NCBI RefSeq assembly: GCF_018977255.1
Contig: NW_024704743.1
Location: 10,046,001 to 10,110,000 of the forward strand
Direction: 5' to 3'
From: Callorhinchus milii
Lineage: Eukaryota
Length of the DNA: 64,000 nt
The notes beneath the pieces were generated by a model, which was given only the letters and a program-made list of their open reading frames with translations, did not search any database and was not told where the DNA came from. The position numbers were made by a program, and so were the translations under genes. Shown here in pieces: positions 6,050-57,426 of the stretch; position 1 is the first letter of the stretch, and every line of letters begins with the position of its first letter.

Positions 6050-6355
6050 TGTGGAGTCCTGTAGCTCCGTGGTTAGAGCACTCGCCTCGCAAACGAGAAA
6101 TCTGGGTTCAATACCCAGCAGGGTTAAATCTTGGGCAAGTTTCGTTATTCCACATGCCTGATAATAATCCCTCAAAAAAAATAGCAATTTGGTCACTCAA
6201 TCCACGACTGTTTGTAGGACACCTCTGTGCGCGATTGGCTGCTGCGTTTCGCCCACAAATATAGTCAATTCACTTTACAGTATATTCTGTGAAGCACTTT
6301 GAGACGTCTAGAAGACATGAAAAGCGCTATATCAAATGCAACGATTATTATTATT
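6050..6355 (+). mobile_element. Full-length tRNA-derived SINE, short form (tRNA head, Deu-like core, L2-type tail, (ATT)n)
   Basis: A box tagctccgtgg, B box ggttcaatac, core ctgtttgtaggac..gtgcgcgattggctgctgcgtttc, tail agcactttgagacgtctagaagacatgaaaagcgct. Confidence 0.92.
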
Positions 6356-15104: not shown

Positions 15105-15119
15105 AATATAAACAATTCC

Positions 15120-15190
15120 AGGGGCACCTGGATTTGAACTGGGGACCTCTTGATCTGCAGTCAAATGCTCTACCATTGAGCTATACCCCC
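15120..15190 (-). tRNA. tRNA-Cys(GCA), degenerate / likely pseudogene
   Basis: Reverse complement GGGGGTATAGCTCAATGGTAGAGCATTTGACTGCAGATCAAGAGGTCCCCAGTTCAAATCCAGGTGCCCCT. One C is missing in the 3' acceptor strand and the T stem has two mismatches. Confidence 0.9.
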
Positions 15191-15900: not shown

Positions 15901-15972
15901 GGGGATATAACTCAATGGTAGAGCATTTGACTGCAGATCAAGAGGTCCCCAGTTCAAATCCGGGTGCCCCCT
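15901..15972 (+). tRNA. tRNA-Cys(GCA), degenerate / likely pseudogene
   Basis: GGGGATATAACTCAATGGTAGAGCATTTGACTGCAGATCAAGAGGTCCCCAGTTCAAATCCGGGTGCCCCCT matches the vertebrate tRNA-Cys pattern. It has A-C mismatches in the acceptor, D and T stems; the B box GTTCAAATC is intact. Confidence 0.9.
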
Positions 15973-29215: not shown

Positions 29216-32078
29216 ATCCGTTTCTTGGACTTGGAATGCTTATGAGGAAAGGCTACCAAACTGATAGCTAGAATTAGGCAGATGAGTTGCAAGAATAGGC
29301 TACAGAAGCTGAGAATTTTCGCTCAGGAGAAGAGAAGACTTAATAATAATAATCCTTCGATTTGGTATAGCGCCTTTAACAATAACTACAACAAATTACA
29401 ATTGTATAGCACCTTTAGCAACAACAACAAATTACAATTGTATAGCGCCTTTAGCAACAACAACAAATTACATTTGTATAGCGCCTTTCACATTGGGAAG
29501 ACGTTCCATGAGGCTGGGTAGTCTAGGATTTGGACCCGAGATGGGAGTTGGGATCAGGAGGGGTGGAGGACAGGGAGGGTAGGGGTAGATGGGGAGAGTC
29601 TTGAGATGGTTCTTGACGGAGGTAAGGGAGGGAGAAAGTGCAGTGACTGTTTTGTGGCCCATTTGCACACAGCAGTCGCATAAACAGAAGGGAATGATTT
29701 TATTTGGGGGATTGCTGATCAAGAATTCAAAATACTGAACAATACAGATAGGTGAACACAATAATTTTACATTCATTACACACTTTTCACATTAGGAAGA
29801 CGCATCAAAGAGCTTCACAGAGTTGACTGGGAGACTGAACTGAGCAAATGGGGGGAGGAAAGTGAAATCTAGTTTATGGGGTGGTTATTTTTGAGATGTT
29901 ATAATCTTTTAATTAACATCTGTGTGCTAATTACCTCATTCAAGGCCTGTCTCAAGAACTTCCTTTTCGACTGTGCCTTTCCTCCTCCACTCCCAATTGC
30001 CCTCCATCCCTAACTGATTCCAACGCGCAGCTGGGGCGCAAACCTCTCATTGTCCAGTACCTTGGGATGTCCTTCCATTGTGAAAGGTGTTCTGTAAATG
30101 CAATTTGTTGTTGTTGCCACATGGTATTTAATTTAGTGACCTTTCAATTTTTAATACATTGACTGGTTTATTGGGGGTGCACGTTCACCTCACTCACTCT
30201 CCCCCCCACCATTCCTGCAACACATCTGTCACTCATTGTGTGTGAGAAGCTGGCCATGCTGCATGTTGGATGTTTGGTTAGCAGAATGACTGGTTTGTTC
30301 TATTTTGTCCAACAAAGTCAGAGTAACAAACTGTACAACAAGAAGGCTTGGATCAGTGCCTCAAAGTGGAGGCAGGAAAACACACAGTTTAAATTTAATT
30401 ATTGTACACAGAGAAAAGCATCATCTTGCTTTACTTTGGCACTGAATGAACCACAATGGTGTTTTACAGTTCTATACTCTCCTCTGTTAAGATTAACTAT
30501 AGTTTGACCATTGAACATATGCAACAGAATACCGGTTATTTGCACTCTGGATACTTGCATGCCTAGTTATTTGCTTCAGGATTGAGATGTGGAAGTAAAG
30601 TTGGACTTCGGTGTTGGCGAAATCTTTAGTTGGGTGGATTGTAACAAGGTCCGAGATTTTATTTGAGCAATCCAAAGTGGGAGGGATGCTACCCTGTGTG
30701 AAGGGTGCTATATAAATCCAAGTTGTTGTTGTGGTGGTGCGATCTGATATAGGTAAGTACATAGTTAGAGAAAGAGACTCAGACAAACTCACAGAGCTAG
30801 AAAGAGAGAAATACACTGGATCTCCACACTGTTATCATATCCACAATGGAGTCTATCCAAGTTTGTGTGGATATTGGACTCTTTCCTATACTGTCATATT
30901 TTCCCATTCCATTTAGTCAGTCAAAAAACAAGGGCTAGCTTGCATCAGTAACAATTTCTGACTTTTACTCTATCTTCAGAACCATCCACTCCTTTGAATA
31001 ACATTTACAATTTAAATTATCTATTGACACTGTAAACTCACAGCAGGCAACGCAAAGCATTGGCAAGCACTGTTTTGAGTGTAAGAGTGGATGTAGAGAT
31101 CTTGCACACATGCTTCTGCGTATTTCTTCACTTAGTCATGACTTGTCAAGTAATGAACAGTGCTCCCGCAATTCACGAAGCTTACAGAAACAAGACATAG
31201 GTTCTGCTCTCAACTTTTAAAATAATTGCATTGTCCCATTTTTGATTTATTTTCCTCTTCACTCCTTCCACTCTCCCACATTCATGTTTGATTATTCAAC
31301 AGGATGAATCATTCCTCAGTTGAGGAGAGCTAATGAACCTCCCCTCAGGCCTCCTGAGCTGGCTGCTGGGAGTTAATCATAATATTAATAATCCTTGCCT
31401 TTGGTATTACGCTTTTCACATCAGGAACAAAAAAAATGTGATCACTCAATCCACGACTGTTTGTGCAATTGGCTGCTGCATTTTGCACACAAAATGTACA
31501 GTAAATTCAATTTACAGTATATATTGTGTGCAGTGCTTTGAGACGTCCCACATGTGATAAGATGTTATATCAAATGCAAGGATTATTATTATGTCTCAAA
31601 GCACTTAAAGTGTACTGAAAGTATGTTTTGTGGATGAACATAATTTGCGTGCAGCAATGTCCCAGAAACAGCCACAAAACAAATTGAGTCTCACTGATAC
31701 AATTCAATTCCACAATACAATTTGCACTTACACAGTGTTTGGGCACCCAAACCAGGAGCGAGGCGGAGGTAAGGGTGTAACGGAAAGATGAACAAAGTCA
31801 AGAAAGAGGTAAGTCTTGAGGCAGGCTTTGCAAGTGGGGTGGGAGTGGGCAAGCTGGAGGGAACTGATAGAGTTCCAGCTTTCAGCAATGTGCAGAATGG
31901 CTTAAAGCTAACCACTGATGGTGAGGTGCATTGTTGGGAGCTGGAGACATACAGTTGTAGGTGTGAACCTATACCCCATAAAAAAGGGCATCTTTTAATA
32001 TATAACAATTCCTTTACATTTTATTGCTATTTTATAACTCTATTGAGGATTAGTCATAATTAGTCATCATAGTCATAA

Positions 32079-32387
32079 TGTGGAGTCTTGTAGCTCAGTG
32101 GTTAGAGCACTCGCTTTGCAAGCGAAAGACCTGAGTTCAATTCCAGGCAGAGTCCGAAACCTTGGGCAAGTTTCCTTACTCCACACAGAGCCTAATAATA
32201 ATCCCTCCAAAACCAAAAACAATAATAAATTGGTCATTTTTAATCTACGACTGTTTGTGGGACATTGCTGTGTGCAATTGGCTGCCGCGTTTGCCCACAA
32301 ATATACAGTCAATTCACTTTACAGTGTGTTCTGTGAAGCGCTTTGGGACGTCCTCCCAACGTGAAAAACGCTATATCAAATGCAAGG

Positions 32388-32420
<33 letters not shown>

Positions 32421-32626
32421 ATCCCTCCCAAACCAAAAACAATAATAAATATTGGGCATTTTCAATCTACGACTGTTTGTGGGACATTGCTGTGCGCAAT
32501 TGGCTGCCGTGTTCGCCCACAAATATACAGTCAATTCACTTTACAGTGTGTTCTGTGAAGCACTTTGGGACGTCTTCCCAACGTGAAAAGCGCTACATCA
32601 AATGCAAGGATTATTATTATTATTAT
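32079..32626 (+). mobile_element. tRNA-derived SINE with tandemly duplicated body and tail
   Basis: One head followed by two near-identical ataatccctcc...aaggattatt units. Confidence 0.92.
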
Positions 32627-32882
32627 AATAAAGTAGTGGGAGTATTGTTTCATGCTATAAGGGTTGGTAGGGCTCTTGCCTCTGAGTCTGAAAGTTGTGG
32701 GTACAAGTCCACATTGGGACTTATCGCCCAGGCTGACACTTCAGTGCAGTGCTTGGGGATTGCTGCATTGTCAGAATAATATCCTTCAGTCTACCAGATA
32801 AAATTGGGCATTCGCTTCATGGCTGTTTTTGAGAAATTGCTATGTGCAAATTGGCTGCTGTGTTTGTCCACAAATATACATT

Positions 32883-33460
32883 CAACAACAGCAACAACTT
32901 GCATTTATATAGCACCTCTCATGCAGTGAAACGTCCCAGAGCACTTGACAGTGGCGAAGCATGGTCCACTAGAACGGTTTTCAGGCGAGACCTGAAAATG
33001 GGGAAGGAAGGGGCAAGGTGGAGGAATAGAGGAAGAGTGTTCCAGAGTTTCGGGGTGTAGTGGCTGAAAGCGCTGTCACCAATAGTAGAACAGAAGGCAT
33101 GGGGGTGTGAGTTGGGGGGTAAGTGGATCGGAAAGGTATGGAGGTGCCAGGGCATGAAGGGATTTGAAAACTAATGTGAGGATCTTGAAATCGACCCGTT
33201 TGGTGATGGGGAGCCAGTGGAGTTTGGCTAGAACAAGTGTGATGGGGATACAGGGTTGAGTAGGGCGGCGGAAGTTTGGATCAGCTGGATCCTGCGCATG
33301 ATGGAGTTTGGGAGTCCGATAAAGACGGAAGTCTAGTCGGGAGGTGACGAACGCATGTCAGAGTGTTTTGGCTGCATCTGGGATAAGGTACAGTCAGAGT
33401 CGGGCATTGTGGCGGAGGTGGAGGAAGGTGGTCCTGGTCAGGGACCAGATGTGGGGAAGG
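32883..33460 (-). mobile_element. Old L2 3' fragment
   Basis: (CAA)n tail, and the minus frame reads STIGDSAFSHYTPKLWNTLP. Confidence 0.85.
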
Positions 33461-34134
33461 AAAGACAGCTTCCTTACACTTTACAGTAAAAATCCTGTGA
33501 AATGCTTTGAGTTGTTTTGATGATGTGATAAGGTGCAGCATCAAAGGAAAGGATTATTATTGTAATAATTAGATTTGATATAAGGCCTTTCACGTTAGGA
33601 GGACATCTCAAAGAGTTTTGCAGGACATACTGTAGAGTGTATTTGTAGGCAAATATGGCAGGCAATTTGTACACAGCGATGCTCCACAAACAGCCATGAA
33701 GTGAATGAACAGATCCGGGTGTCTTACTATTATTTACGATATGCCCTTTATTTTCAAGAGAAGCTGCTTTTTAGACAGTCCTAATGTTTGTTTACCTGTA
33801 CTGACATCAGAATATAGGAATGTAGGAAAAGGAGTAGTCTTTTTTGGTCCAAAAAGGTTCCTCTGCCATTTTATGAGTGCATGGCAACTCCTTATCTCTC
33901 TAATCTCATCTCCTTCTTTCTCTTTGGAGTGCAAAAATGTGATGTGATAATTCTGAAAATCATCACATCTCCTACAGCACCATTTAATCTTCCATCTCTT
34001 AATATCCTTAACTTGCAAAGTATCTCTCTTTTAAATGCCTCAGTTTATTCTGGAATTAAGGCCCTCTACAATGCATTTCACATTCTCACAATGCTTTGTA
34101 TAAGAAATGCTTTCTGTCTCATCTTTAACTAGCT

Positions 34135-34530
34135 TAGAAACATAGAAATCTAAAATGCAGAAGGAAACCATTTGGCCCATCAAGTCTGAACTGGCTCACA
34201 GAGCAAGGAGATTACTTCAGTCCCATTGCCCTGCCGTATCTCCATATTTGGCCCAGGACACAAAGAAAAACTGAAACTGAAAAACTGAAAAAACCATATC
34301 CCTTCAAGATCCTCCCTTTCCTATGATTGTCTATTTCCCTCTTGAAAGTTACAATAGACTCTGTGTTCGCCACCCTAATGGACAGGCCATTCCGCACCCC
34401 AACAATTCTCTGGGTGAAAAATTTCCTCCCAAGTTCTCCTTTTGCTGTTCTTCAGGCTATCATAGCTATATCTCCTTTTCACCGATTTCCCTATCAAGGG
34501 AAATTACTTCTCCCTATTTACCCTGACAGG
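34135..34530 (-). mobile_element. CR1-type 3' end remnant (related copies near 5705-5965, 46620-46710, 51545-51615)
   Basis: tagaaacatagaaatcta..gcagaaggaaaccatttggcccatcaag tail shared among the copies. Confidence 0.65.
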
Positions 34531-36292
34531 CCGACCACAGCTTAACATCTCATACCAAGCACAGCATCACTGACATTGCAATGCATCTCCAACAGTGTAT
34601 TGAAGTATCAGGCTAACCAGTGAATTCAAAATCTTAATGTCAGGTTTGAACTCACAACCTTTTGACTGAGAGGCAGGAGTGCAACCAATTGAGCCAAGGC
34701 TGACACACAAATGATTACATTGATTTTGCTCGTGCTATGGATGTCAAATCTCTGCATGAGCAATTCCATCCGATTTCTTTGCATTGCAGAAATCTCCCAA
34801 CTGTCATAAAGTTCAATTGCTTCTGTGCCTACAATGCTTGGAAACACTGCACAGTGGTGCTTCTTAGGTTTCTCAGAAACCCTGTGGCTATTGCACATAT
34901 CTCAAACTCCCTCTTGGCTCTTTTCCAATTGTCTTTGAAGTTCCCACACAATTGCAAACTATGTGTTTTTTTGATATATAATAATGGCAATTCTTGCATT
35001 TGATGTAGCACCTTTCACGTCGAGAGGATGTCTCAAAGCATTTCACAGGATTCATTCTAATAGGTTATTGACTGTGTATTTTGTAAGTGAACATGGCAGC
35101 CAATTTACACATAGTATTGTATTGTTCTCCAACAGCTGTGAAGTGAATTATAATTTTATTTGGGGAATTGTTAGCCAGAACACCGGGAAAAATTTCCTTC
35201 ACGTTTCAAACAACCACATGAAATCTTTTATCAGGAGAGGTGGAGAAGGTAAGATGACCTGAGGTGCAGTCAAAGAGGTAGGTTTTAAGGTAGGACTTAA
35301 AGACAGATAGAAAGGAGCAAGATAAAAGTGTAACAGAAGGAGTTCTAGAACATTAGGGGCATGATCACAGCCTCTGTTTTGGGAAGGATATGAGATTATT
35401 TCAGTTTTTCTTTGTGTCCTGGGCCAAATAATGTACTTTTATAGCGCCTTAAAATCTTAAAGTACTGTATCATGTGTAGCGACTATTTTTATACACAAAC
35501 ATGATATTTGTACACAAGGTCCCACAAATACCAATGAGGTGATTGAACAATAAATGTAAAGAGTTATTGGCTGGGACACTGGGAGAAACTCACGTCCTTT
35601 TTGGAATAATGCCATGTGATCTTTATTGTCTGACTGAGAGAAAGCAGATGAAAGCTCAATTTATTATTTGATCTGAAGGACGGCACCTCACAAAATGCAA
35701 GGCTTCCCCAGTACCGCACTCAAATGTCAGTCTGGATTATTCAAGTTCCAACATCCGGCATCAGATTATAATCTTGTGACTCATTCATGAGGCTCAGTGA
35801 GCTAGGCTGATACATGTTACTCTTTGCTGTTAAGTGAGTGCTGTCAGAAATTACATGTTTGTGGACGTTGGGTGAGGCCATGTTTGAGTGAGATGTGACA
35901 TGCCCATGAATAACATCATAAAGCTCACTGTTCACATTTGTAAGTATTGAATGGACCCATTGGCCAGGATTTGGATGGGATGGCTGCCAGATACATGGAA
36001 GTCCAGAGGGAGTCACTGAATAATAATAATCCTTGCATCTTGACATTTGATATCATGTCTGATCATGTCATTAAGACATCTCAAAGCTTCACAGGATTGT
36101 AAAGTGTAGTCAATGTGTACTTTATAGGCAAACACAGCAACTAATTTTCTTGCAACAGTGTCCCACAAACAGCCATGAAGTGAATCACCAATTTGATTTT
36201 GGGGGATTATTAGCCAGAATATCGGGAAAACTCCCTTCTCTTTCTGAATAGTGCCTTGGATCTTTAACATTCACCTGAACAAGCAGATAGGA

Positions 36293-36525
36293 CAAAAAGC
36301 AAAATACTGCAGATGCTGGAAATCTGAAATAAAAACAGAAGCCGGTTTATAAAGTTTATAAAGTCCTTATAAAGATGATTATTAGGACTCTTACACTGCT
36401 CCCTTCCAATATCCCCCAGTTCTGATGAAAGGTCATTGATCTGAAACATTAATTCACTTTCCTCTCTCCATAGATGCTCCCTGACCTGCTGAGTGTTACC
36501 AGCAACTTCTTTTTCTATATTATAT
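36293..36525. mobile_element. 233-bp insertion with 12-bp TSD; Penelope-terminal-like, contains a hammerhead motif
   Basis: AAGCAGATAGGA at 36281-36292 and 36526-36537 flanks the insert, which interrupts an old SINE. Confidence 0.75.
36418..36454 (+). ncRNA. Minimal type I hammerhead ribozyme motif (decayed)
   Basis: AGTT-CTGATGA-A-AGGTC/ATT/GATCT-GAAA-CA-TT-AATT: both core boxes, helix II and helix I pairing are present; helix III is minimal. Confidence 0.55.
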
Positions 36526-36650
36526 AAGCAGATAGGATCTCAGTTTAATGTCTCATCCAAAGAACAGGACCTCTGACAATACAGCTCTGCGCCAGCACTG
36601 CATTGAAATGTCAGCCTAGACAGTAAACTCAAGTTCTAATGTGGGGATTG

Positions 36651-37042
36651 AACAACAACAACACATTTCAATAGTATTGCATTTCATATCGAGACAATGT
36701 CCTGGACAGTCAAGGATTTGGACCCGAACGGAGAGTTTGAATCAGGGGGGGTGGAGGACAGGGTCGGTAGGGGTAGGAGGTTGGCAGAATGTGCAGTCAA
36801 AGAGGAGCATGTTGAGACATGCCTTGAAGGAGGCAAGGGAGGGGGTGTGGTGAAGGGATCATGCGATGGAGTTCTAAAGGGGCAGAACGGCTGAAGACCT
36901 GAACACCGATGGTGGGGCGGGATGGGCAGGGTACGTGGAGCAGGCCGCAGCCTGCTGAGTCGAGGGAGTGGCCAGGTCAATATGGCGTTAGTAGGTCACA
37001 AGGCCATGGAGGGCTTTGAAGGCGAGGACGAGAATTTTGAAC
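36651..37042 (-). mobile_element. Old L2 3' fragment
   Basis: (CAA)n tail and similarity to the L2 3' region. Confidence 0.8.
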
Positions 37043-38371
37043 AGTGAAGTCACAGTGCAACTTGCTAACTTAGCAACAGTTCTGCCAGGCTGACCAACTT
37101 CAAAGCAGGAGTGAGGGAGATACAAGGAAGCAACTGACAGAAAAAAGAAGCATGAGCAAAATTATAATAACACGCTACTTCATGATCATTATGGGTAACA
37201 TTTAGTGTACAGTCATGTGCTGGGAATTAGTGGCAAGCAAGATGAAATTGTATTGCTCAGATTGTATCTCTCGCTGGCCTGTTGACAGTTTATATAAAGC
37301 TTAACTGAAAGCGAAAACAGAAAACCATGCTGTAAAAGTTTGCACTGCAAAGAAATAATTTCCCCTGTGGCCAACATTTAGGAATTTATTTACCTTTATT
37401 TCACTGCTAAGTAAATACAAAAAAACTCAAAGGTAAGGAAGAATGGCTGCATATGATATGTGTATTAACTTTTGCAAGTACTTTCCACAAAGCATGTGTG
37501 ACCTACAGACCCAAGCACAAGAGCTACAGGGCCCTGTAGTCTCAGCACAATGAGCCACTGGCTCTGAAATTAGCTGACAGGTTTAGGAAATTCTCACTTA
37601 TAATGAAGAGGGTTAATTATGAACTGAACCTCTACGAGCTTAAGCCCTGTGCATTGCAGAACTATGTAACTATCAGAAGAATCACAACTAGCTACTCTTC
37701 AGGAAATGAAACAGGACTTATTTACATTTAGAGTGATTCCTGCTTGAGAATGAGAGTTAGAGAACACTGTGCTGTTAATCACATCAAAGCATTTAAAAAT
37801 TAACTTTTAACAGCAGCTGAAGAGACTTTTAATGAACAGAGGCTGAATTCCTTCAATTTTCAGGTTTACATATAAGTTTTTTCAAAAAAAATCTCAGTTA
37901 AAAAAAATCATTCGTCAGATATCTGGCATTTTGTTTTCCATTAATGCTGCTGTGAGAGTCACAACGTTACAGTGGTCAGATGGAATATTCAACTACTTTA
38001 ACCTGGATTCTGCAGCATAATTTGGGACATTTCTTGAACCATGTTGAAATGGAATTAAATTTCACGTAGCTTTCCTTCTGGATATCTTCATTTGCTGAAC
38101 ACATTTCAGACAATGCATTATTTACATTGTACTGTTAGCAGTGCAGCTTCTGCTGGGAGTACAGTGGAATTTGTCAGCCAAGACTTCATTAGTTTTGCTA
38201 AAAGTCAAGCTGTTCATTTAGATTGAATCTGAACTGACAGTTCAATTGGATTAAAGATTTTTGTGTAAATGGCTTCAGGTAATTTAGAGTAAATTTGCAT
38301 TAGGTTCAATTGAAAACTAGAGGAGTTAATACTTATAACATTAAAATATATCACTTTCTCCACATCCTCAT

Positions 38372-38738
38372 GGCTATAATTCCTGCCATGCACTCACCTC
38401 TCAAGCGAGAGGACACAGGTTTGATTCCCTGGCAGGTTGAAACCTTAGGAAAGTTTCCGTTTTCCACATGCCTCTTCTTAGCTAGCAGTAAGTAGGAACC
38501 CTGTTGCTAGTTGATTGGTAGATTGCTTTCCAGGAGTAATAATCCCTCAAATAAATAATAATAATTTAGTCATGCAATCCACGACTGTTCGTGGGATACT
38601 GCTGTGGACAATTGACTACCAAGTTTCACCCACAAAATACACAGTCAATTAACTTCACAGTATATTCTGTGAAGAGCTTTGAGACGTCTCAACAATGTGA
38701 TGAGGTGCTGTATCAAATGCAAGGATTATTATTATTAT
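38372..38738 (+). mobile_element. tRNA-derived SINE, long form (head eroded)
   Basis: cactcacctctcaagcgagaggac head, internal block and tail. Confidence 0.85.
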
Positions 38739-38739
38739 A

Positions 38740-39625
38740 AGTCGGAGATGGTCTCAGTTGAGGTGTTTGCAGCCAGAGCAGCATTGGAGATGCTAAGATT
38801 AGCCTCAATGTCACCAGATGAGGGAGGTGATAAGCAGCCAGGGTTTCCTGGTTCGAATCTCCTGCTAGCAACACTCTGTCAATGCTTATCTGGTCAATGC
38901 TTATCATTGATAATGGCCATTTGGATATGGGATAGTGGAGAGCAAGTGGCTTCTGTTAAACCATATCTCAATAAAAGGGCACTCTGGTCATGCTCATCTC
39001 TTTTCAAGTTCAGCAAGATCCTAATGCAGGTCAACCTTGCAGCATATAAGACCTGTGTGCAAACAATTCTCCTTTATGGATCTAAGTTCCTGGGAATACA
39101 GCAGAGTGGCTTCCATTTGCAAAGTACTAGGATCAAGCAGTGAGGTGGATTTCTGGCAAACACGGGAAGCTGCTGCCAGGATGGAGAGCTACAGCCTACA
39201 TTGACCTGTTGCCAAGCACCCTGGAGATGGAGGCAGCTTCACTGAAGCCCCATCTATTTGCCAAGGCCCCTCGCATTATACCTGGATTAAGCAGCTGGTG
39301 CTGAGTAAGCCTGGCATTGGCTTGGATCTCAAGAACATCAAGGTGACTGGCACGTGGCAAGCTATCAACAACAACAACTTGCATTTATATAGAACCCTTC
39401 ATGCGTGGTAGCGTCCCAGAGCACTTGAGGAGTGCTATCCTTTGAAGGTCCTCCAACCGCTCTGAGGGAAGATGTCCGCCACGTAGCTAATGAGGAAACT
39501 CTGAAGTTTGGGGCAGTAGCCGCTGGAAGGCATCGGGAAAACTCATTTGTATATCCGGCACCCAGAATCCACCTTGATTGGCAGAGAGGTAAACTCTTCA
39601 CGCTGCATTGCATCTTAGAGCATTG
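38740..39625 (+). mobile_element. Highly decayed RTE-clade LINE remnant
   Basis: AYKTCVQTILLYGS resembles the RTE ORF motif VYxACVLSxLLYGSE, followed by a GFHL-like segment. Interrupted by an L2 tail at about 39365-39430. Confidence 0.5.
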
Positions 39626-42600
39626 AACAGTGACAGAGTTTGACAGTGAGCCAGGGAGAAAGAGGATGACTGTAAGCAAGGTCGAGGAGAAAAGTCACAC
39701 AAGAAAAATTCAGAAGAGAAAATTGGCAAGAGAACAATGTTTATCACTTTTAATGTTGGATTCATGCAGAATCAAATCTGGAATGTCTTTGAGCTAGCAA
39801 GCTGCATATCCCACCCTTGTTGTTCAGGTATTTCATTGTTTGTGGATATGTTACAAAGCAAAGTGGGGAACACTCATAAGTTTTTCTGAAGCTGCCATCT
39901 CTCTGTTAAAATGAAACTATTATTTAGCATTGTGCTGCTTTCTTCTGCAATACAAATAAACTTGGTTTGACTTAAAAAAAACAGCATCGCATGTGCTATG
40001 TAATTGTAATATAATTGTGCAATTATTGTGTTGATGATCCCAGTGACATTGGGGTGAAAAAAGCAAGTAGGGATGTGATAAATTGTTGTAGGCCAAAAAC
40101 TGTGATTCAAAACAATTATTGATATTTTGGATGTAAACTCCCTTCCCCTTCTCCCCTCCATTCAACTTCCATCATCCAACTTCCAACATCAACACGATGC
40201 TTAGGTGTGAACCAGTCAAATATTTATATGAATGGGGGGATTCTTGCTGCTGCCTATAAGCTTGGAGTTTGAGGTGCCATTGATACCACCCTATCTCTGA
40301 CTGAATGGATAAAATACTGACTTGAATGTTGAAGGCCTTTCAGGCCATTCAATCTCATCCTTCCACAATCCTATTGACAATGGGGTCCACCACTCTTGGC
40401 TCTCACCAATCTACACCTAATACGTTACAGCATTAGATGGTCAGGGTGTCCCCCCCGGGGAGAGCATGCACAATCCATTCCAGGGAAATTACCATGTGAA
40501 TACATATGTGGAACTCTCACTCTGGTTTGGATACTCTTAAGCATGGTGATTGGTTTTTGCATGTATCAGACATCTGGCTGACCAAAACAAAAAACACTGG
40601 AACAGAGTACCAGGAAGGGTGACTGAGATCAGGGCATCAGACTGGTTTAAAAATCAGCTTGGTGTTTCGATGAGTGGATGATTGGGAGGGCATTCAGAAA
40701 AGATGAGACCAAATGGGTTGAAGAGCTTTCTTCATCTGAACGCTCTTGTAACCTTTGATTAAAGTTCCTATCCGAATGTTGCAAGGTATATAAGAGAACC
40801 CTTGAGTGTGCCAGTGCCACGACTCTGCTTCTTTAGTGAAATTGCTGTGGATCATATAGCATTTCCCAGTACTGCACTGGATTGAGTTACACAAACTCAG
40901 TGATACAACAAGACCACCACAACAGCAGCAACAACTACAACTTCACAGTGGTTAGCTTATTGGATTGTTTAACAATGGCAGAATGTGACCCTGGACCAGG
41001 AAGAAAGAGAGGTGACTGTAGGCCCAATTGAAATGGAAGTTCTTCAGGTGTGATCTGAAGATGGGCAAGGAGATGGCAAGTTGAGAGATTGAGGCAGAGT
41101 GTTTTAAAGTCTCAGGGTGTAATGGCTAAAATGATGACCACCAATGGTAGAGTGGAGGGGGTGAGGAACATGCAGGAGCCAGCTGAGCAATGGAAGTGGG
41201 TAGTGGTGTGGTGTGTATGAGGTGGGAGATTTAGGGAGGTGTCAGGATATTAAGTAAATTGTACACCAGTGTAAGGATCTTGAAATTGATCTGGTCAGCA
41301 ATAAGAAGGCAGGTGATGGGGGTGTGGAGTTGAAATGGGTGAGGATATGGGCGGTGGAGTATTTTTAATTAATTAGGTAAACAATTTTACAGCTTACAGT
41401 TGAAAGAAAGCTGAAACCTTGCCTACGTGAATACTTCTATCAGTCTAGCAAACCAGGAAATAAAGGAGAAAAAATAATGCATTCATTTAGTGTAATAACC
41501 AGTCCATCAAATTATCAATGTTTTTATGACCTACTTCATGTCTAAAACTCAGATATTCAATGAAACTCTTGTCAGATTCTGAATGTAATCTGAGATCGAG
41601 ATACACTCAGAGCACAATCTTTTCACAAGGTCACTTTAATTGTGCCTCAGTTAGTCCTTCAACTGTTTAAAACAATATTTTAGCAATGGACCTGAGCAGC
41701 TCCCTTATGTTGTGGCGACCAGAGATGTACATGGTATTCCAGGTGTGACCGCACCAGAGCATTATAAACTCCTTATAGTTTGAAACATCTCAGAATGTTT
41801 CCATGTCAATTATGAATGAATTAGGAATGTTTCTCCAACAAAATCCACAGTCACTACACCAAATGCAAGGATTAATATTATTACTAATCACTGTGATCTG
41901 TAGTGACTGTTTTTGTTGGCAAATGTGCCAGCCATTCAAACCAGCAAGGTCTCACTGCAGCAATGAGGTGGCTGACCAATTAAACTGGAGGTTTGTTGGG
42001 TAGGCTATCGGGAGAAATACGCAGTTGCTTCACATGGCAGTATATCCTGTGAAACACTTTGGACATCCTCCCAATATACCAAATGCAAGGATTATGATTA
42101 TTTTTATTAAGATGATACAATGATTAGAGCCAATCTCTGACTCTGCATAACTTTATTATCACCTTCTGTGAGAACACAGTGTTCGTATCACAATCTTCAC
42201 TCATTCCAAAACAATCCTTGATACTTTGATCTTCTATCTTGTGTGTTCTCATTTTATTCTTCATAAGCTACAAGATTGAATGTTTCTCTGAGCATTTCTT
42301 TAGTGACTTTACTGTGAGTATAGTGTTAAAAAAACAACACAGACGTGATTGCTTTCTTTATGATCGACACAAACTGAAGTCCTGTCTATTGGTGGATTGC
42401 TTTCCATGGGTAATAATCCCTTAAAAAAAAAAAAATTTGGTCACTAAATCCATGACTGTTTGTTGGACACTGCCTTGTTGGAGTCCTGTAGCTCAGTGGT
42501 TAGAGCACTCGCTTTGCAAGCGAGAGACCTGAGTTCAATTCCAGGCAGGGCGAAATTTTGTGACATTTCATAATGGTTTCAATCTGTTCTGAAATGTTGC

Positions 42601-43242
42601 AAATTTTCCCCTATGGAAAAGTGACTAATAAACCGAACCGTACTAAAATGGGCCGCATTGAAAAATAAAAATGCGATAATTAAAACCATCTTACCTTCAG
42701 ATTTTCAACCAAGTAAAGTTCAACAAGATGGTAGTACTGGCAATTTTATTGCCTGAAATAGAAACAAATAATATTGTGTATCCCTCAGGTACTGTGAAAG
42801 TGAGTGAACTTGTGCCAAGTGTATTGCGTAGGAAATGAAAATTCTGTTCACTGAAGGTGATATTATAAAAGTATAGTTTCTACAGCTTTTTAGAGAGTTT
42901 ATTTTTAGAAGTTTTACAAGGTCTCACAAAACAGTTCGGTTATCAAGATACCCAAAAGGTTTATATCGCCTCAATTACATATTTATAAATTTAATTTGAT
43001 AATTGTTTTCCCCTTTGTCTCCTGCAGGAAACGTTCCTTCAACATGACTTCCCTCAGCAAGGTGGTCAGGTTAGTAGTCCTGATTGTGAGCTTCTCAACA
43101 CCAACCACCAATTCAGATCTCCCTTCCTCCTTCCAACCCCCTCTCCTTTCCCTCCTGGTTTGCCTGCAAAATACAAAGCTAATACACTTTACAGTATGTC
43201 CTGTGAATCACTGTGAGATGACCTCCTGACTTGAAAGTCACT

Positions 43243-44904
43243 TTCTTGCCCCACATATCACTGACATCATCAACCTGTCCCTCTCCTCTGGCTCTGTCCC
43301 CATTCCATTAAAAACTGCCATCATCACGCCCACCCTGAAAAAACCCTCCCTTGATGCGTCGCAGCTATCAAGTTACCGGCCCATCTCCAACCTCCCATTT
43401 CTCTCCAAGGTCTTGGAAAGAGTTGTCGCCTCCCAACTGCGCTCTTTCCTTTCCACCCATTCACTTTTCGAACCCCTTCAGTCAGGTTTCCGTGCTGCCC
43501 ATAGCACAGAAACTGCCCTGGTCAAGGTCACCAATGATATCCTGACCATCTGTGACCAGGGCTCCCTCTGTCTCCTCGTCCTCCTCGACCTATCGGCAGC
43601 ATTCGATACGGTCGACCACGCTATCCTACTCCACCGCTTGTCCTCCCACCTCAACCTTCAAGGCACTGTCCTTGAATGGTTTAGGTCGTACCTTTCTCAC
43701 CATCTTCACTTTGTCTCGATGAATGGCTTCTCCTCCACCCCCCGCACTGTCTCATGTGGTGTCCCTCAGGGCTCTGTCCTTGGTCCCCTCCTCTTCACCC
43801 TCTATATGCTCCCCCTTGGTGACATCATCCGCAGACATGGAGTTAACTTCCACATGTATGCGGATGACACCCAACTCTACCTTTCCTCCTCTACTCTCAA
43901 CTCCACGACCACCGATGTCCTGACAGCCTGCCTGTCCGACATCGAGTCCTGGACGAGAGACAACTTTCTTCAGCTCAACGTGCGAAAAACCGAGGCCCTC
44001 CTGATTGGCTCACGTCAGCGCCTCCGCACCTCAGGCGCTGACACCATCAGCATCCAAGGCTGCACTCTCCACCTCTCAAAGCCAGTCAGGAACCTCGGGG
44101 TTCTGTTCGACCCTGAGCTGTCCTTTCTCTCTCACATCCGCACCACAACTGGCACCGCCTTCCATCACCTCCGGAACATCGCCAGACTACGACACTACCT
44201 CACCCCTCACGCTGCTGAAACCCTGGTTCACGCCTTTGTCACCTCAAGGCTGGACTATGGGAACTCTCTCCTCGCCGGCCTTCCCGCCACCTCCCTCCAC
44301 AAGCTGCAGGTCATTCAGAACTCTGCAGCTCTTGTACTGTCCCGCACCAGGCTTCGGGACCACATCACTCCCACCCTCGCTCGCCTCCACTGGCTCCCCA
44401 TCCCCCAGAGGATTGATTTCAAGATCCTCATCCTCACCTACAAGGCCATTCACGGCCTTGCTCCCTCCTACCTCTCCAACCTACTATCCCCCTACCTACC
44501 TGCCCGTACCCTCCGTTCCTCTGGCTCCGGTCTGCTCCACATCCCCCGCCCCAACCGCCCTACCACTGGTGGCCTGGCCTTCAGCCTCTCAGCCCCCAGG
44601 CTCTGGAACTCCATCCCCCAGTGCCTTCGCCTTGCTTCTTCCCTTTCCTCCTTCAAGGCCGGTCTCAAAACCTTTCTCTTTGACCGTGCCTTCAGCTCCC
44701 CTCTCGACTCTCTTCCCCCTCCTCGCTCCCTCCCTTCCCTCCCCTCACCCTGACCATTTCCCCCCTCCTTGCTCCCTCCCTTCCCTTCCCTCACCCTGAC
44801 CATTTCCCCCCTGCTCGGGTCATGACCCAACTGTGCAGCGCCTTGGGACATCCTCCTGACGTGAAAGGCGCTTTATAAATGGAATCTTGTTGTTGTTGTT
44901 GTTG
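43243..44904 (+). mobile_element. Young 5'-truncated L2-clade LINE (RT domain, 3' UTR, stem-loop tail, (TTG)n end)
   Basis: RT motifs [53 protein letters not shown], plus the L2-typical C-terminus [15 protein letters not shown]. Ends in agcgccttgggacatcctcctgacgtgaaaggcgctttataaat followed by (ttg)n. Confidence 0.97.
43245..44753 (+). CDS. L2 ORF2 reverse transcriptase fragment; uninterrupted frame, lacks the endonuclease
   Basis: ORF track 43413..44753 (446 aa). Manual reading shows the frame stays open upstream to the truncation point at about 43245 ([16 protein letters not shown]...). Confidence 0.85.
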
Positions 44905-46750: not shown

Positions 46751-49700
46751 CAACAACAACTTGAATTCATATAGCGCCCTCCACGCCGGACGATGTCTCA
46801 GAGCGCTTTACAGTAATGGATCCCAGGGCCGAGCCAGGGGGAGGGGGAGGAGGGTGACCAAAGGCGCAGTTGAAAAGAAAAGTCTTCAGCAGAGACCTGA
46901 AAATGGGAAGGGAGTGAGCGAGATGAAGGGAGTGAGGAAGGCAGTTCCAGAGCCTCGGGGCATAGTGGCTGAAAGCGCAGCCGCCAAAGGTGGAGGACTC
47001 AGGGGACGAGGAGGAGGCCAGACGCGAAGTAATGAAGGAAACGGGTACTATTTTGAGGAGAGAGGAAGTTAGAGAGGTAGGGGGCTTCAGAGGAGTGCAG
47101 GGACTTGAATACAAGGGTGAGGATCTTGAAATCGATCCTCTCTGGGATAGGCAGCCAGTGCAATCTGGCAAGGTCTGGGGTAATCGGGGAGCAGAGTTTC
47201 GTGCGGGTGAGAATGTGGGCGGCAGAATTTTGAATGATTTGGATTTTATGGATGGTAGTGGATGGGAGACCGGTGAGGAGGGCATTTGAATAATAATAAT
47301 AATAATAATAATAATCCTTGCATTTGATATAGCGCTTTTCACATCGGGAGGACATCCCAGAACACACTGTAAAGTGAATTGACTGTATATTTGTGGGCGA
47401 ACGCGGCAGCCAATTGCGCACAGCAATGTCCCACAAACAGTCGTAGATTGAAAATGACCAATTTATTATAAATTATAAATATAAATTTATAATAAATTTA
47501 TAATAAATTATAATTATAATATAATTATATTTATTATTATAGTTCAGCAGGGAGGTGATTAAGGCATGGATCAGGGTTTCTGCGGCTTTTGGGGAGAGGT
47601 ATTGGCGGAGACAGGTGATGCGTCGGAGGTGGAAGAAAGCGGTGCTGGTGAGGGACCGGATGTGGGGGAGGAAGGATAATTGGGGGTCGAACCTGACGCC
47701 TAGGTTGCTTATGGGTTCGGAGAGTTTTAGGGGGAGGTCAGGTAAGTGGAGAAGGTGAGAGCCGTGAGATTTTAGACGTTGACGAGAGCCAAAGAGTATG
47801 GCTTCTGTCTTGTCAACGTTCAGCTGAAGGAAGTTTGCACTCATCCAGCTCCTGAGATCTGACAGACAGGCTGACAGAACATCAGGGGACTGGGGGTCGC
47901 AAAGTGAGCTGGAAAAATAGAGTTGGGTGTCGTCTGCATACATGTGGAAATGTACCCCATGTCTGCGGATGACATCCCCAAGAGGGAGCATGTAGATCAG
48001 AAAGAGGAGGGGACCAAGGATGGATCCTTGTGGTACCCCGCAGGTGACTGAGTGAGAGTGGGAGGAGAAGCCATTTGTGCAGATGTACTGCTGGCCGTTT
48101 GTGAGGCAGGACTCGAACAAGGCGAGTGCGGTCCCACTGAGGTGGATGACGGAGCAAAGGCGGTGGAGAAGGATGGCGTGATCGACTGTGTCGAAAGCGA
48201 CGGAGAGGTCCAGGAAGACAAGGAGGCAGAGGGAGCCCTGGTCACAGATAGAGAGGATGTCGTTTGTGACTTTCACAAGTGCAGTCTCTGTACTGTGGGC
48301 AGGGCGGAAACCAGACTGGATGGGTTTGAAGAGTGAGTGGGAGGAGAGGTGTACACGGAGTTGGTTTGCAACAATGCGTTCTAGAACTTTTGAGAGGAAG
48401 GCAGGTTAGAAATAGGGCTGTAATGGCTGGGGTTTGAGGGATCTAGGGAGGGTTTTTTCAGGAGGGGTGTGATAACAGCAGTTTTGAGGGAGGCAGGGAC
48501 TGATCCAGAGGAGAGGGACTGGTTGATAATGTCAGCCAGTAGTGGGCAGAGGAGGGGGAGCTGTGTGACCAGTAAGTTGGTGGGGAGGGGTTCAAGGCAG
48601 CATATTCATGGAGGTGATGGTGGGTGAGAGGGAGGAGGGAGAGATGGGGAGGAAAGAGTGTAGAAAGGGGGTGGTGGTAGGAGCAGATGATGAGGAGGGT
48701 GAGGGGTCAGAGAGGGCGTGGTGGTGGGTGATAAGGGGCAGGTGGATGAGGCTGCCTGGCGGATGTTCAGTATTTTTGTTGAAAAGAAGTCCATGACCTC
48801 CTCGCACTTGGCATTTGATATGAAGATTGTGGAGGCCAGAGGGGGCGACGGAGGAGGTAGTGGGTGGTGGAAAAAAGGATTTGGGATTTGTGTTTAGCCT
48901 CCAAGATGATGTTGGAATAGAAGGCCGTTTTGCACGTGTCAAAGAATGGCAGTAGCTGTGGAAATGCTCGAGCCACAGTTGGCTGTGAAATGTCAGGCCA
49001 GTTTTCCGCCATCTGTGCTCCAGCAGTCGGGTTTGGGTTTTTTGGCGGCGGAGATGCTAGTTGTACCAGGGTGATTGTGTGGGTTTGGAGATTGTCCTGG
49101 ATTTTAGGGGAACAAGGGAGTTGAAAGTGGAGGAGCGGCGATCATGGAGCAGCTGGACAGCTGCTTCAGGATCTCCGTGTGTGGAAGGCAAGACGGATAG
49201 GATGTTTGAAGATGAGAGGGACTTTGTGAGGTTCTCAGGGGGTAGCCTTTTCCAAGGGCGGTAGAGGATGGTTGAGGGCTTGGTGGAGGAGAAAGGTATG
49301 TGAGAGGAGAAGGAGATGAAAAAGTAGTCCGAGATGGCTTTGTCCTCTATGCTGAGGTTGGAAATGTCAAGGCTATGGGTGATGGTGAGGTCAAGTGCAT
49401 GACCACGGTTGTGGGTAGGTGAGTTTATATGGAGGGTAAGGTTTAGGGAGGAGAGGAGGGCAGTGAAATTGTCAGAAGTGGTGCAGGGGGAGTTTAGGTG
49501 GAGGTTGAAATCGCCCATTATGAGTAGGCGCAGAGGGACAGGGAAGAGAGGAGAGTAGAGATGTCTGTGAGGAAGGATCTGGGGGGGCTTAGGGGGGTGG
49601 TAAACAAGGAGGATTTTCAAAGGGAGATGGGGGGGAAAAGGGTGAGGTGCTCGAAGGAGGGGAAGCAGCTAGAGGAGTAGGGGATGAAACCAAGGGAGGC

Positions 49701-50510
49701 TTTGGAAATGAAGGCCACCCCACTGCCTCATTGGTTTGGACGGGGGGTGTCGTGGAAAGTGTAGCCTGGAGGGGAGGCTTCCACTAGGGGGATGGGGTCA
49801 TTGGGGGAGAACCAGGTTTCGGTGAGCCCAAGAATATCAAGGTGCTCGTCCAGAATGAGGTTATGGATGATGAGGGCTTTGTTTGAGAGGGAATGAACAT
49901 TTTGGAGGGAAATGCAGGTGGGTTTGCTGGAGGGGGGGAGGGAGGAGAGAGTGGTGCGGAGAGGATTTTGCGTTGTATAGGAGAGTGGTGTGAGTGGAGA
50001 GTTGGGGAGGGTACGTATGAGGGAAGGGGGAGTTGGGTTTGCCTTAAGGAAGCGGTTTGTGTGGAGGGAGTTTGTGTAATGGGACACGTGGGGTTGCTGC
50101 TCTGGGACAGCCAGTGCCGGGAGCCACAATGGGCCTGGCGGAGGATGCCCAGGCTGGAGTAGAGGGAAGTGGTGATGGGGTCGAGGAGAGAGAGAAGGCG
50201 GGGAGGGCAGTGGGAAAGCAGGACAGAGTGGGAGCAGCGGATAGAGGTGGGTGGGAGGAGAGACATAGAGGGGGGTGGTCGGAGAGATATTTAGAGTGGA
50301 GGGGGAGGGGAGACTCGGGGCGGCAGCCAAAACGGCCAAGCAGAGACCAGGAGCGAGTGATCAGCAGGACGGGATCAGCCCTCTGGCTCAGCCTCCCAGG
50401 TCAGGGCCGGGATAGCAATGCCAAGGGCCAGGCCATTGTTGTGGTTGTTGTTGTTGCTGGGTTTTAAAAAAAAAGATTTTTTTTTAACTATGACATCACA
50501 CTGATGTCAC
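46751..50510 (-). mobile_element. Near full-length decayed L2 LINE (APE endonuclease + RT), interrupted by a SINE
   Basis: Minus-strand frames give the APE motifs SLQNVHSLSNK, LDILGLTETW, LIMGDFNLH, PTHNRGHALDL, ISDY and the RT motifs DLSVAFDTVDH, GVPQGSILGP, YADD, LHWLP. Multiple frameshifts. (CAA)n tail at 46751. Confidence 0.93.
47288..47469 (-). mobile_element. 5'-truncated SINE nested in the L2 RT region
   Basis: Splits the L2 motif LLNY|SNALL. Body matches the 32418-32626 subtype. Confidence 0.92.
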
Positions 50511-57068: not shown

Positions 57069-57426
57069 ATAATAATCTTTGCATGATATAGAGCCTTATC
57101 ACATCGTTGAGATGTCTCAAAATGCTTCACAGAATATACTGTAGAGTGGACTTACTGTTTTTTGGAGCGAATTGCGGCAACCAATTAAACACAGCAGTGT
57201 CCCACAAACATTCGTAGATTGAGTGACCAAATTATTTATTTGTTATGGAAGGAATTATTACCCCTGGAACACAATCGACAAACGACCGGGTTCCTACTTA
57301 CTGCTAGGTAAACAGAGTTGTATGGAGTAAGGAAAGTTGCCTAATGTTTCGCCCTGCTGGGCATCAAACCTGGGTCCTCTCGCTTGTGAGGCAAGTGCTC
57401 TAACCAATACAGTACAGGACTCCACT
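57069..57426 (-). mobile_element. tRNA-derived SINE, long form
   Basis: Head (CAC in the anticodon-like loop), internal block and tail. Confidence 0.88.

Follow-up and report, generated by a model that had tools for sequence, protein, structure and literature searches.

The window analysed here is a 64-kb stretch of repeat-rich, vertebrate-like DNA, in which a 233-bp insert lies between two exact copies of the 12-bp direct repeat AAGCAGATAGGA and interrupts an older SINE-like repeat (Table 1). The host repeat is on the minus strand, with the remnant of a B-box-like head and an (ATT)n tail, and the label "old SINE" that a preliminary description of the locus gave to it is, judging by its letters, a fair one. 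The window contains tRNA-headed repeats, with 11 Rfam tRNA hits in all. Since tRNA-Ala-headed SINEs partnered with L2 have been described in holocephalans (PMC5499810), the source may be a cartilaginous fish. Heads resembling tRNA-Ala, which belong to a second, younger SINE family, are found at 1305-1376, 6055-6126, 42482-42553, about 57330-57420 and other positions, with 20 to 30 matches in the window. Two tRNA-like genes with a GCA anticodon, at 15119-15190 (minus strand) and 15901-15972 (plus strand), stand in opposite orientation about 710 bp apart and score 55-58 bits; they are either true tRNA-Cys genes or repeat heads. The window also bears a LINE copy with a 507-aa open frame (43230-44753, plus strand; RVT_1, E = 7e-37), another LINE copy with RT and upstream frames (47473-50360, minus strand) that causes a strong GC skew at 48001-50000, and, at 32077-32632, a tandemly duplicated SINE 3′ end of about 220 bp, with (ATT)n tails.

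Table 1. Positions of the insert, its parts and the interrupted host repeat in the window
Feature	Positions	Strand	Description	Basis or remark
Host SINE-like repeat, 3′ part	36014-36292	-	Ends in (ATT)n tail near 36021-36031	
TSD, left copy	36281-36292	+	12 bp, possibly 13 bp	
Inverted arm	36293-36341	-	Last 49 nt of the family: tail of 36-44 nt plus 5-13 nt common to both arms	Opposite-strand joints, heterogeneous flanks
Junction filler	36342-36394	.	Single-copy	Contig depth
Direct arm	36395-36518	+	5′-truncated end repeat with hammerhead; family homology stops between 36510 and 36518	Contig alignments
Hammerhead motif	36418-36454	+	Minimal type I; predicted cleavage after 36450; worn at 36437, 36440, 36448 and 36453	Consensus rows compared in Fig. 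S3 of the PMC4209133 supplement
Part of predicted 3′ stem-loop domain	36472-36510	+	36472-36479 paired with the tail (36311-36318) in family order	Fold prediction
AT-only bases between arm and TSD	36519-36525	.	7 bases, probably untemplated; up to 15 if the arm stops at 36510	Sequence
TSD, right copy	36526-36537	+	Exact repeat of the left copy	
Host SINE-like repeat, 5′ part	36526-36650	-	B-box-like remnant near 36645-36653	

Target site and composition of the insert

We aligned contigs of 4 of the 24 listed sequencing runs to positions 36200-36620 at 80% likeness. Two of these runs, X1 and X21, are from organism A, X7 is from organism B and X16 is from organism D; X21 is taken as an RNA run only by guess and gives no verdict on the expression of this copy. 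Exact pairs of 12-mers spaced 100-500 bp apart are frequent in the window (80 collapsed pairs, mostly microsatellites and duplicated repeats), and thus calling the flanking repeat a target-site duplication (TSD) depends on empty sites. The insert is absent from all eight host-repeat paralogues in the window, five of which carry the equivalent of the 12-mer only once, the remaining three being gapped or diverged there. Moreover, at least 172 contigs in X1 exit at 36293 directly into right-flank sequence, and at least 183 come into 36528 out of left-flank sequence. The 12-bp repeat that the preliminary description had seen around 233 bp inside the SINE is a TSD, and its empty site is found in the paralogues. 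Because the paralogues carry a C just past the 12-mer, the C at 36293 is possibly derived from the host and the TSD possibly 13 bp long. In organism B, a contig of X7 corresponding to window positions 36229-36339 covers the SINE flank, the TSD and the left arm with 12 differences over 111 nt; this may be the orthologue of the present insertion, or one that hit the same position of the SINE independently.

The 233 bp consist of three pieces, namely an inverted 49-nt end, a 53-nt single-copy filler and a hammerhead-bearing arm of 116-124 nt. Contig depth in the four runs lies between tens and hundreds of thousands at 36290-36349, and between thousands and hundreds of thousands at 36395-36514. 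Over 36350-36379 in the filler, depth is 15.8 in X1, where one contig is identical to the window, 0-1.8 in X16 and 0 in both X7 and X21. Since the middle 53 nt are single-copy, the 233 bp are not a repeated unit. The filler holds a 9-nt unit about three times (36345-36374; the 8-mer triple was matched in none of 2000 shuffles) and an imperfect 11-bp inverted repeat (36362-36372 and 36379-36389; equalled in 14 of 500 shuffles), and its hairpin energy is not significantly different from that of shuffles (z = -1.0). When a template for the filler was sought within 400 bp, just a 9-nt match at 36205 and the internal repeats were found.

The right arm agrees with the family to 36510, and the agreement probably extends to 36518, with matches at 6 of the 8 further positions. 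Positions 36511-36525 were also considered as a worn start of the tail (10 of 15 matches, equalled in 4058 of 100,000 shuffles) and rejected, since the five mismatches would be improbable at 10% divergence (P = 0.013); we accept homology to 36518 at most. The tail of 36-44 nt is found in the left arm only, and its length is set by the end point of the right arm. This copy differs from the family majority at about 8 of 116 positions.

The hammerhead motif and its relatives

The letters of the hammerhead lie where the preliminary description had placed them: CTGATGA (36422-36428), an extra A at 36429 that gives the unpaired base between positions 9 and 10.1, helix II (36430-36434 and 36438-36442), GAAA (36443-36446), CA (36447-36448), TT (36449-36450) and helix I (36418-36421 and 36451-36454). 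The core CUGANGA ... GAAA ... UH is present together with helices I and II. Taken alone, the motif in this single copy is weak, because the Rfam check suggested in the preliminary description gives no hammerhead match, either at the gathering score in the window or at E ≤ 10 in 35800-37000, the fold of the hammerhead stretch is no different from shuffles (z near 0) and 34 of 100 shuffles also contain a loose hammerhead pattern. A full descriptor, which was written after the motif had been seen, matches one site in the window and none of 300 shuffles.

Among the relatives of this copy, C is found at 36440 in 84, 77, 91 and 83%, C at 36453 in 94, 89, 68 and 96%, and G at 36448 in 71, 49, 53 and 73% of the summed depth in X1, X7, X16 and X21, respectively; these figures come from the 40 variant rows listed, measure shares of depth rather than numbers of copies, and favour copies with a likeness of 80% or more. 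The majority C at 36440 and 36453 turns two G-U pairs into G-C pairs, and the majority G at 36448 brings back the palindrome of helix III, which bears out the CpG decay that had been supposed for this helix. The energy of helices I and II is -1.6 kcal/mol in this copy and -6.5 kcal/mol with the majority letters, and the self-duplex of helix III is at +2.8 kcal/mol in this copy versus -3.5 kcal/mol with the majority letters. With the majority letters, a fold other than the hammerhead still has the lowest energy (z = -1.0; 56 of 300 shuffles). The free core position 36426 varies (31, 17, 1 and 54% of depth in the same order of runs), and no majority change occurs at the invariant core positions among the 40 rows listed, so that the consensus keeps both the core and the helix pairing, as the preliminary description would have it. 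On these grounds a chance match, with which the empty Rfam search, the fold and the frequent loose pattern would agree, is extremely unlikely: the relatives restore exactly the pairs that are broken here (36440, 36448 and 36453), the variation in the rows listed falls at the free position, in the loops and in the helices and not in the invariant core, and the full descriptor is absent from the shuffles. As far as sequence comparison can tell, the hammerhead is real, its helices I and II and its helix III palindrome being restored in the relatives.

Minimal hammerheads (min-HHR) are known from the end repeats (pLTRs) of metazoan Penelope-like elements (PLEs), in which the motifs are mostly single and dispersed (Cervera and De la Pena 2014, PMC4209133). 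Compared with the portions of that source used here, the present motif shares with min-HHR the CUGANGA core, the extra base between 9 and 10.1, the 5-bp helix II, GAAA, the UH triplet, the short helix I and, in the family majority, the palindromic C-G at 15.2/16.2; it thus fits the min-HHR consensus, in agreement with the Penelope-type minimal hammerhead of the preliminary description. Unlike typical min-HHR, the pair 10.1-11.1 is A-U, not the usual G-C, in this copy and most of its relatives, and this copy is without the palindrome. In the same alignment G10.1-C11.1 is typical (above 80%) and not universal, and A-U is found in the D. willistoni row and the second coelacanth row; because such rows occur there too, we call the motif a variant of the min-HHR type. 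Within the present family, G at 36430 accounts for 18, 40, 12 and 15% and C at 36442 for 6, 15, 2 and 6% of depth in X1, X7, X16 and X21, the two positions not being phased. No cartilaginous fish is among the alignment rows compared.

The ribozyme of this copy is probably inactive, as had been proposed, because the helix III palindrome is broken and no partner hammerhead is found in the 64 kb. By analogy with known systems, the motif in the parent element would most likely be a weak ribozyme, assisted by dimer formation or by protein, that processes tandem transcripts.

The repeat family in contigs of four runs

The further copies anticipated in the preliminary description are very many in the contigs of the four runs. 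With SINE-flank matches included, positions 36200-36620 are matched by 12,988 of 7,939,851 contigs in X1, 14,297 of 7,114,053 in X7, 18,590 of 31,419,562 in X16 and 3,628 of 1,663,283 in X21. No further copy was found in the 64-kb window by blastn or nhmmer; the best other nhmmer match (57318-57377, E = 0.12) was discarded as lying inside a tRNA-headed SINE. Copies with flanks were also sought by pattern in two metagenome, two prokaryote-genome and three viral scans, in which vertebrate DNA is not expected, and there were no matches. Two matches of 47 nt in phage records (E = 5e-3) were taken as chance.

Among the loose ends listed, those after 36340-36341 are the reverse complement of 36476-36505 in at least 247 contigs of X1, 273 and 247 of X7, 1013 of X16 and 93 of X21. 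Among the joints listed, an opposite-strand joint 36341>36505 with five shared letters occurs in at least 6, 6, 1 and 1 contigs, and another, 36336>36510, also with five shared letters, in at least 3, 6, 0 and 6 contigs of X1, X7, X16 and X21, respectively. These joints and loose ends indicate that the hammerhead arm of the family continues into the sequence that is inverted here at the left end. The family order is therefore contiguous, with the hammerhead followed by the 3′ stem-loop region and then by the tail. The family terminus is sharp at 36292-36296, supported among the loose ends listed by, for example, at least 310 contigs in X1 and 2114 in X16, and beyond it are unrelated A/T-rich flanks with an agreement of 0.36-0.42.

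Put in family order, the terminal 100 nt have a better fold than most shuffles (bettered by 13 of 300 for this copy and by 2 of 300 with the majority letters), and the modelled 3′ fold could be a protein-binding or priming structure. The segments 36472-36479 and 36311-36318 form an 8-nt near-direct repeat, which in family order forms the stem that closes a three-way 3′ structure in the predicted fold. At 36457-36476 and, on the minus strand, at 36320-36336, pyrimidine tracts run up to an AG in the manner of 3′ splice sites. An ATG at 36474 begins a frame of 27 codons, open to the tail end in family order, which might mark where the parent ORF begins or be due to chance in a T-rich strand. At positions 36456, 36457, 36471 and 36498 of the family, organism D departs from organisms A and B, which suggests lineage-specific subfamilies around an unchanged hammerhead core. 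The family may be short and non-autonomous, an RNA of some 160-170 nt whose own 5′ end lies near 36395, the contigs being traceable only where they match this copy.

The contrast between this family order and the arrangement at the locus could have arisen from an ordinary direct insertion that was rearranged later, or from an assembly error, and indeed none of the contigs listed spans the whole stretch. A 133-nt contig of X1, however, equals 36315-36447 without a difference and bridges the junction of filler and right arm; it has 27 nt to the left of the junction between left arm and filler, 4 short of our 31-nt bridging rule, and X1 may be the source of the assembly. A later rearrangement would have had to shift the tail to the edge of the TSD and to turn it round without damage to either TSD copy. 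We consider both events very unlikely.

The same holds for the possibility that the 233 bp are the monomer of a non-LTR retrozyme, or of a similar ribozyme RNA spreading via circular RNA. The size of the insert is in the range of 150-450 bp and its TSD exceeds 4 bp, as given for animal retrozymes; retrozymes derive from pLTRs and are reported from one chondrichthyan genome, which was also included in a PLE survey. As far as the portions of the two sources consulted go (Cervera and De la Pena 2020, PMC7229834; Li et al. 2026 bioRxiv 10.64898/2026.07.22.740005), the insert resembles non-LTR retrozymes in being non-coding, a few hundred bases long, related to pLTRs and flanked by a TSD, and in bearing a type I hammerhead on one arm. 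Unlike them, it is neither tandem nor a repeated unit, its hammerhead is minimal and not canonical, with a helix III of the PLE type, and its structure is inverted. Only the two ends are repeated, and they stand in opposite orientation; the middle occurs as a single copy in X1 and hardly at all in the three other runs; the 64 kb contain one motif, and no tandem of such size exists in 33000-40000. The preliminary description, in which the 233-bp unit was seen as a non-autonomous, Penelope-derived mobile RNA family, was thus correct about a real insert with a Penelope-type hammerhead and is not borne out for the unit; it had overlooked that the first 49 bp are the family end reversed and that the middle is single-copy.

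Origin and meaning of the insert

The insert is very likely a heavily 5′-truncated insertion of an endonuclease-bearing PLE, of which the pLTR only is left. The pieces, their orientation, the TSD, the high copy number of the family and its contiguous order are established directly, and we assign the insert to PLEs because of the hammerhead type and the geometry of tail and inversion. Its hallmarks are an inverted 5′-truncated copy of the end, 3′ ends that point outward and a tail on one arm. In the published accounts, as far as compared here, PLE insertions show an inverted truncated pLTR, a one-sided tail of 31 bp or 30-40 bp and TSDs of 8-10 bp (Arkhipova et al. 2013, PMC3846280; Craig et al. 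2021, PMC8557442); junction palindromes are frequent, and unrelated DNA between solo pLTRs is also known (PMC8557442, PMC3846280). The insert is like these endonuclease-positive PLE insertions in its head-to-head arms with outward 3′ ends, its one-arm tail, its TSD, its junction palindrome and the unrelated DNA between solo pLTR pieces. It is unlike them in being without coding sequence, in a TSD of 12 bp, slightly above the 8-10 bp of the rotifer examples, and in an inverted arm that reaches hardly beyond the tail, the arms sharing 5-13 nt with no long palindrome.

Pieces of the repeat could also have been inserted by twin priming of an L2/CR1 LINE, or caught in the repair of a double-strand break, in either case without a Penelope enzyme. 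The window is rich in RT frames (RVT_1 in 3 of the 12 scanned), which we take to be of the L2/CR1 type; twin priming likewise yields a TSD and an inversion, and the filler resembles end-joining synthesis. Such an origin is nevertheless quite unlikely, given that the left arm starts exactly at the common terminus of the family, that there is no poly(A) or microsatellite tail, that the inner end lies 36-44 nt inside, in agreement with a PLE tail, and that the cargo is a hammerhead repeat of the PLE type. A search in the six frames of the window for PLE protein motifs gave none, and this is a weak test.

If the insert is a truncated PLE, the RT/GIY-YIG protein would most likely have cut the two strands within the SINE, at nicks about 12 nt from each other. 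One 3′ end would have primed RT at the outer start site of the family, 125 nt past the start of helix II, and synthesis would have stopped after 49 nt. The other 3′ end would have primed at an inner site 36-44 nt upstream, 81-89 nt past the start of helix II, and about 120 nt would have been copied, passing the hammerhead cleavage site by 56 nt, in which case the template RNA would have been uncleaved there. Slippage or snap-back synthesis of 53 nt would then have linked the cDNA ends, and the TSD would have arisen when the gaps were filled. Afterwards the copy would have decayed at the roughly 8 of 116 positions that now differ, one of which disrupts the helix III palindrome that dimer cleavage requires; most likely the copy is inert.

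Several of these putative steps have a counterpart in the purified Poseidon PAc protein of Anolis carolinensis, which is described as cutting and extending both strands and using uncleaved RNA, with RT beginning at a pair of neighbouring internal sites by which the tail is defined (Frangieh et al. 2024, PMC11167929). The two start sites proposed here likewise lie downstream of the hammerhead, at the above distances from the start of helix II compared with 111-118 nt for the main PAc site. In PAc the ORF begins at helix II, whereas here the frame opened by the ATG in the hammerhead closes after 19 codons, and the target has no obvious ATT at the nick, ATT being the motif preferred by the anole protein (PMC11167929). 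The insert is also known from its sequence alone, whereas PAc is known from purified protein.

The inverted arm stops 5-13 nt past the start point of the other arm. This overlap is expected if both strands were primed on one RNA and the outer cDNA reached the inner primer, and is not expected if two RNAs were copied independently. That the stub records such single-template twin priming by a Penelope enzyme is possible, though we regard it as doubtful.

Both the type of ribozyme and the pattern of insertion are already known. In the literature searched, to which Repbase, Dfam and closed papers did not belong, we found neither a PLE hammerhead of a cartilaginous fish given by sequence nor this family. 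The single locus is of little weight, being a decayed fragment that is largely ordinary, and the family merits a catalogue entry. Two-strand priming by PLEs is named as unresolved in the parts of PMC8557442 and PMC11167929 consulted, and many short inverted stubs could test how PLEs prime two strands. If abutting arms prove over-represented among thousands of such stubs, this genome would offer a direct test of how PLEs form the second strand and the inverted end.
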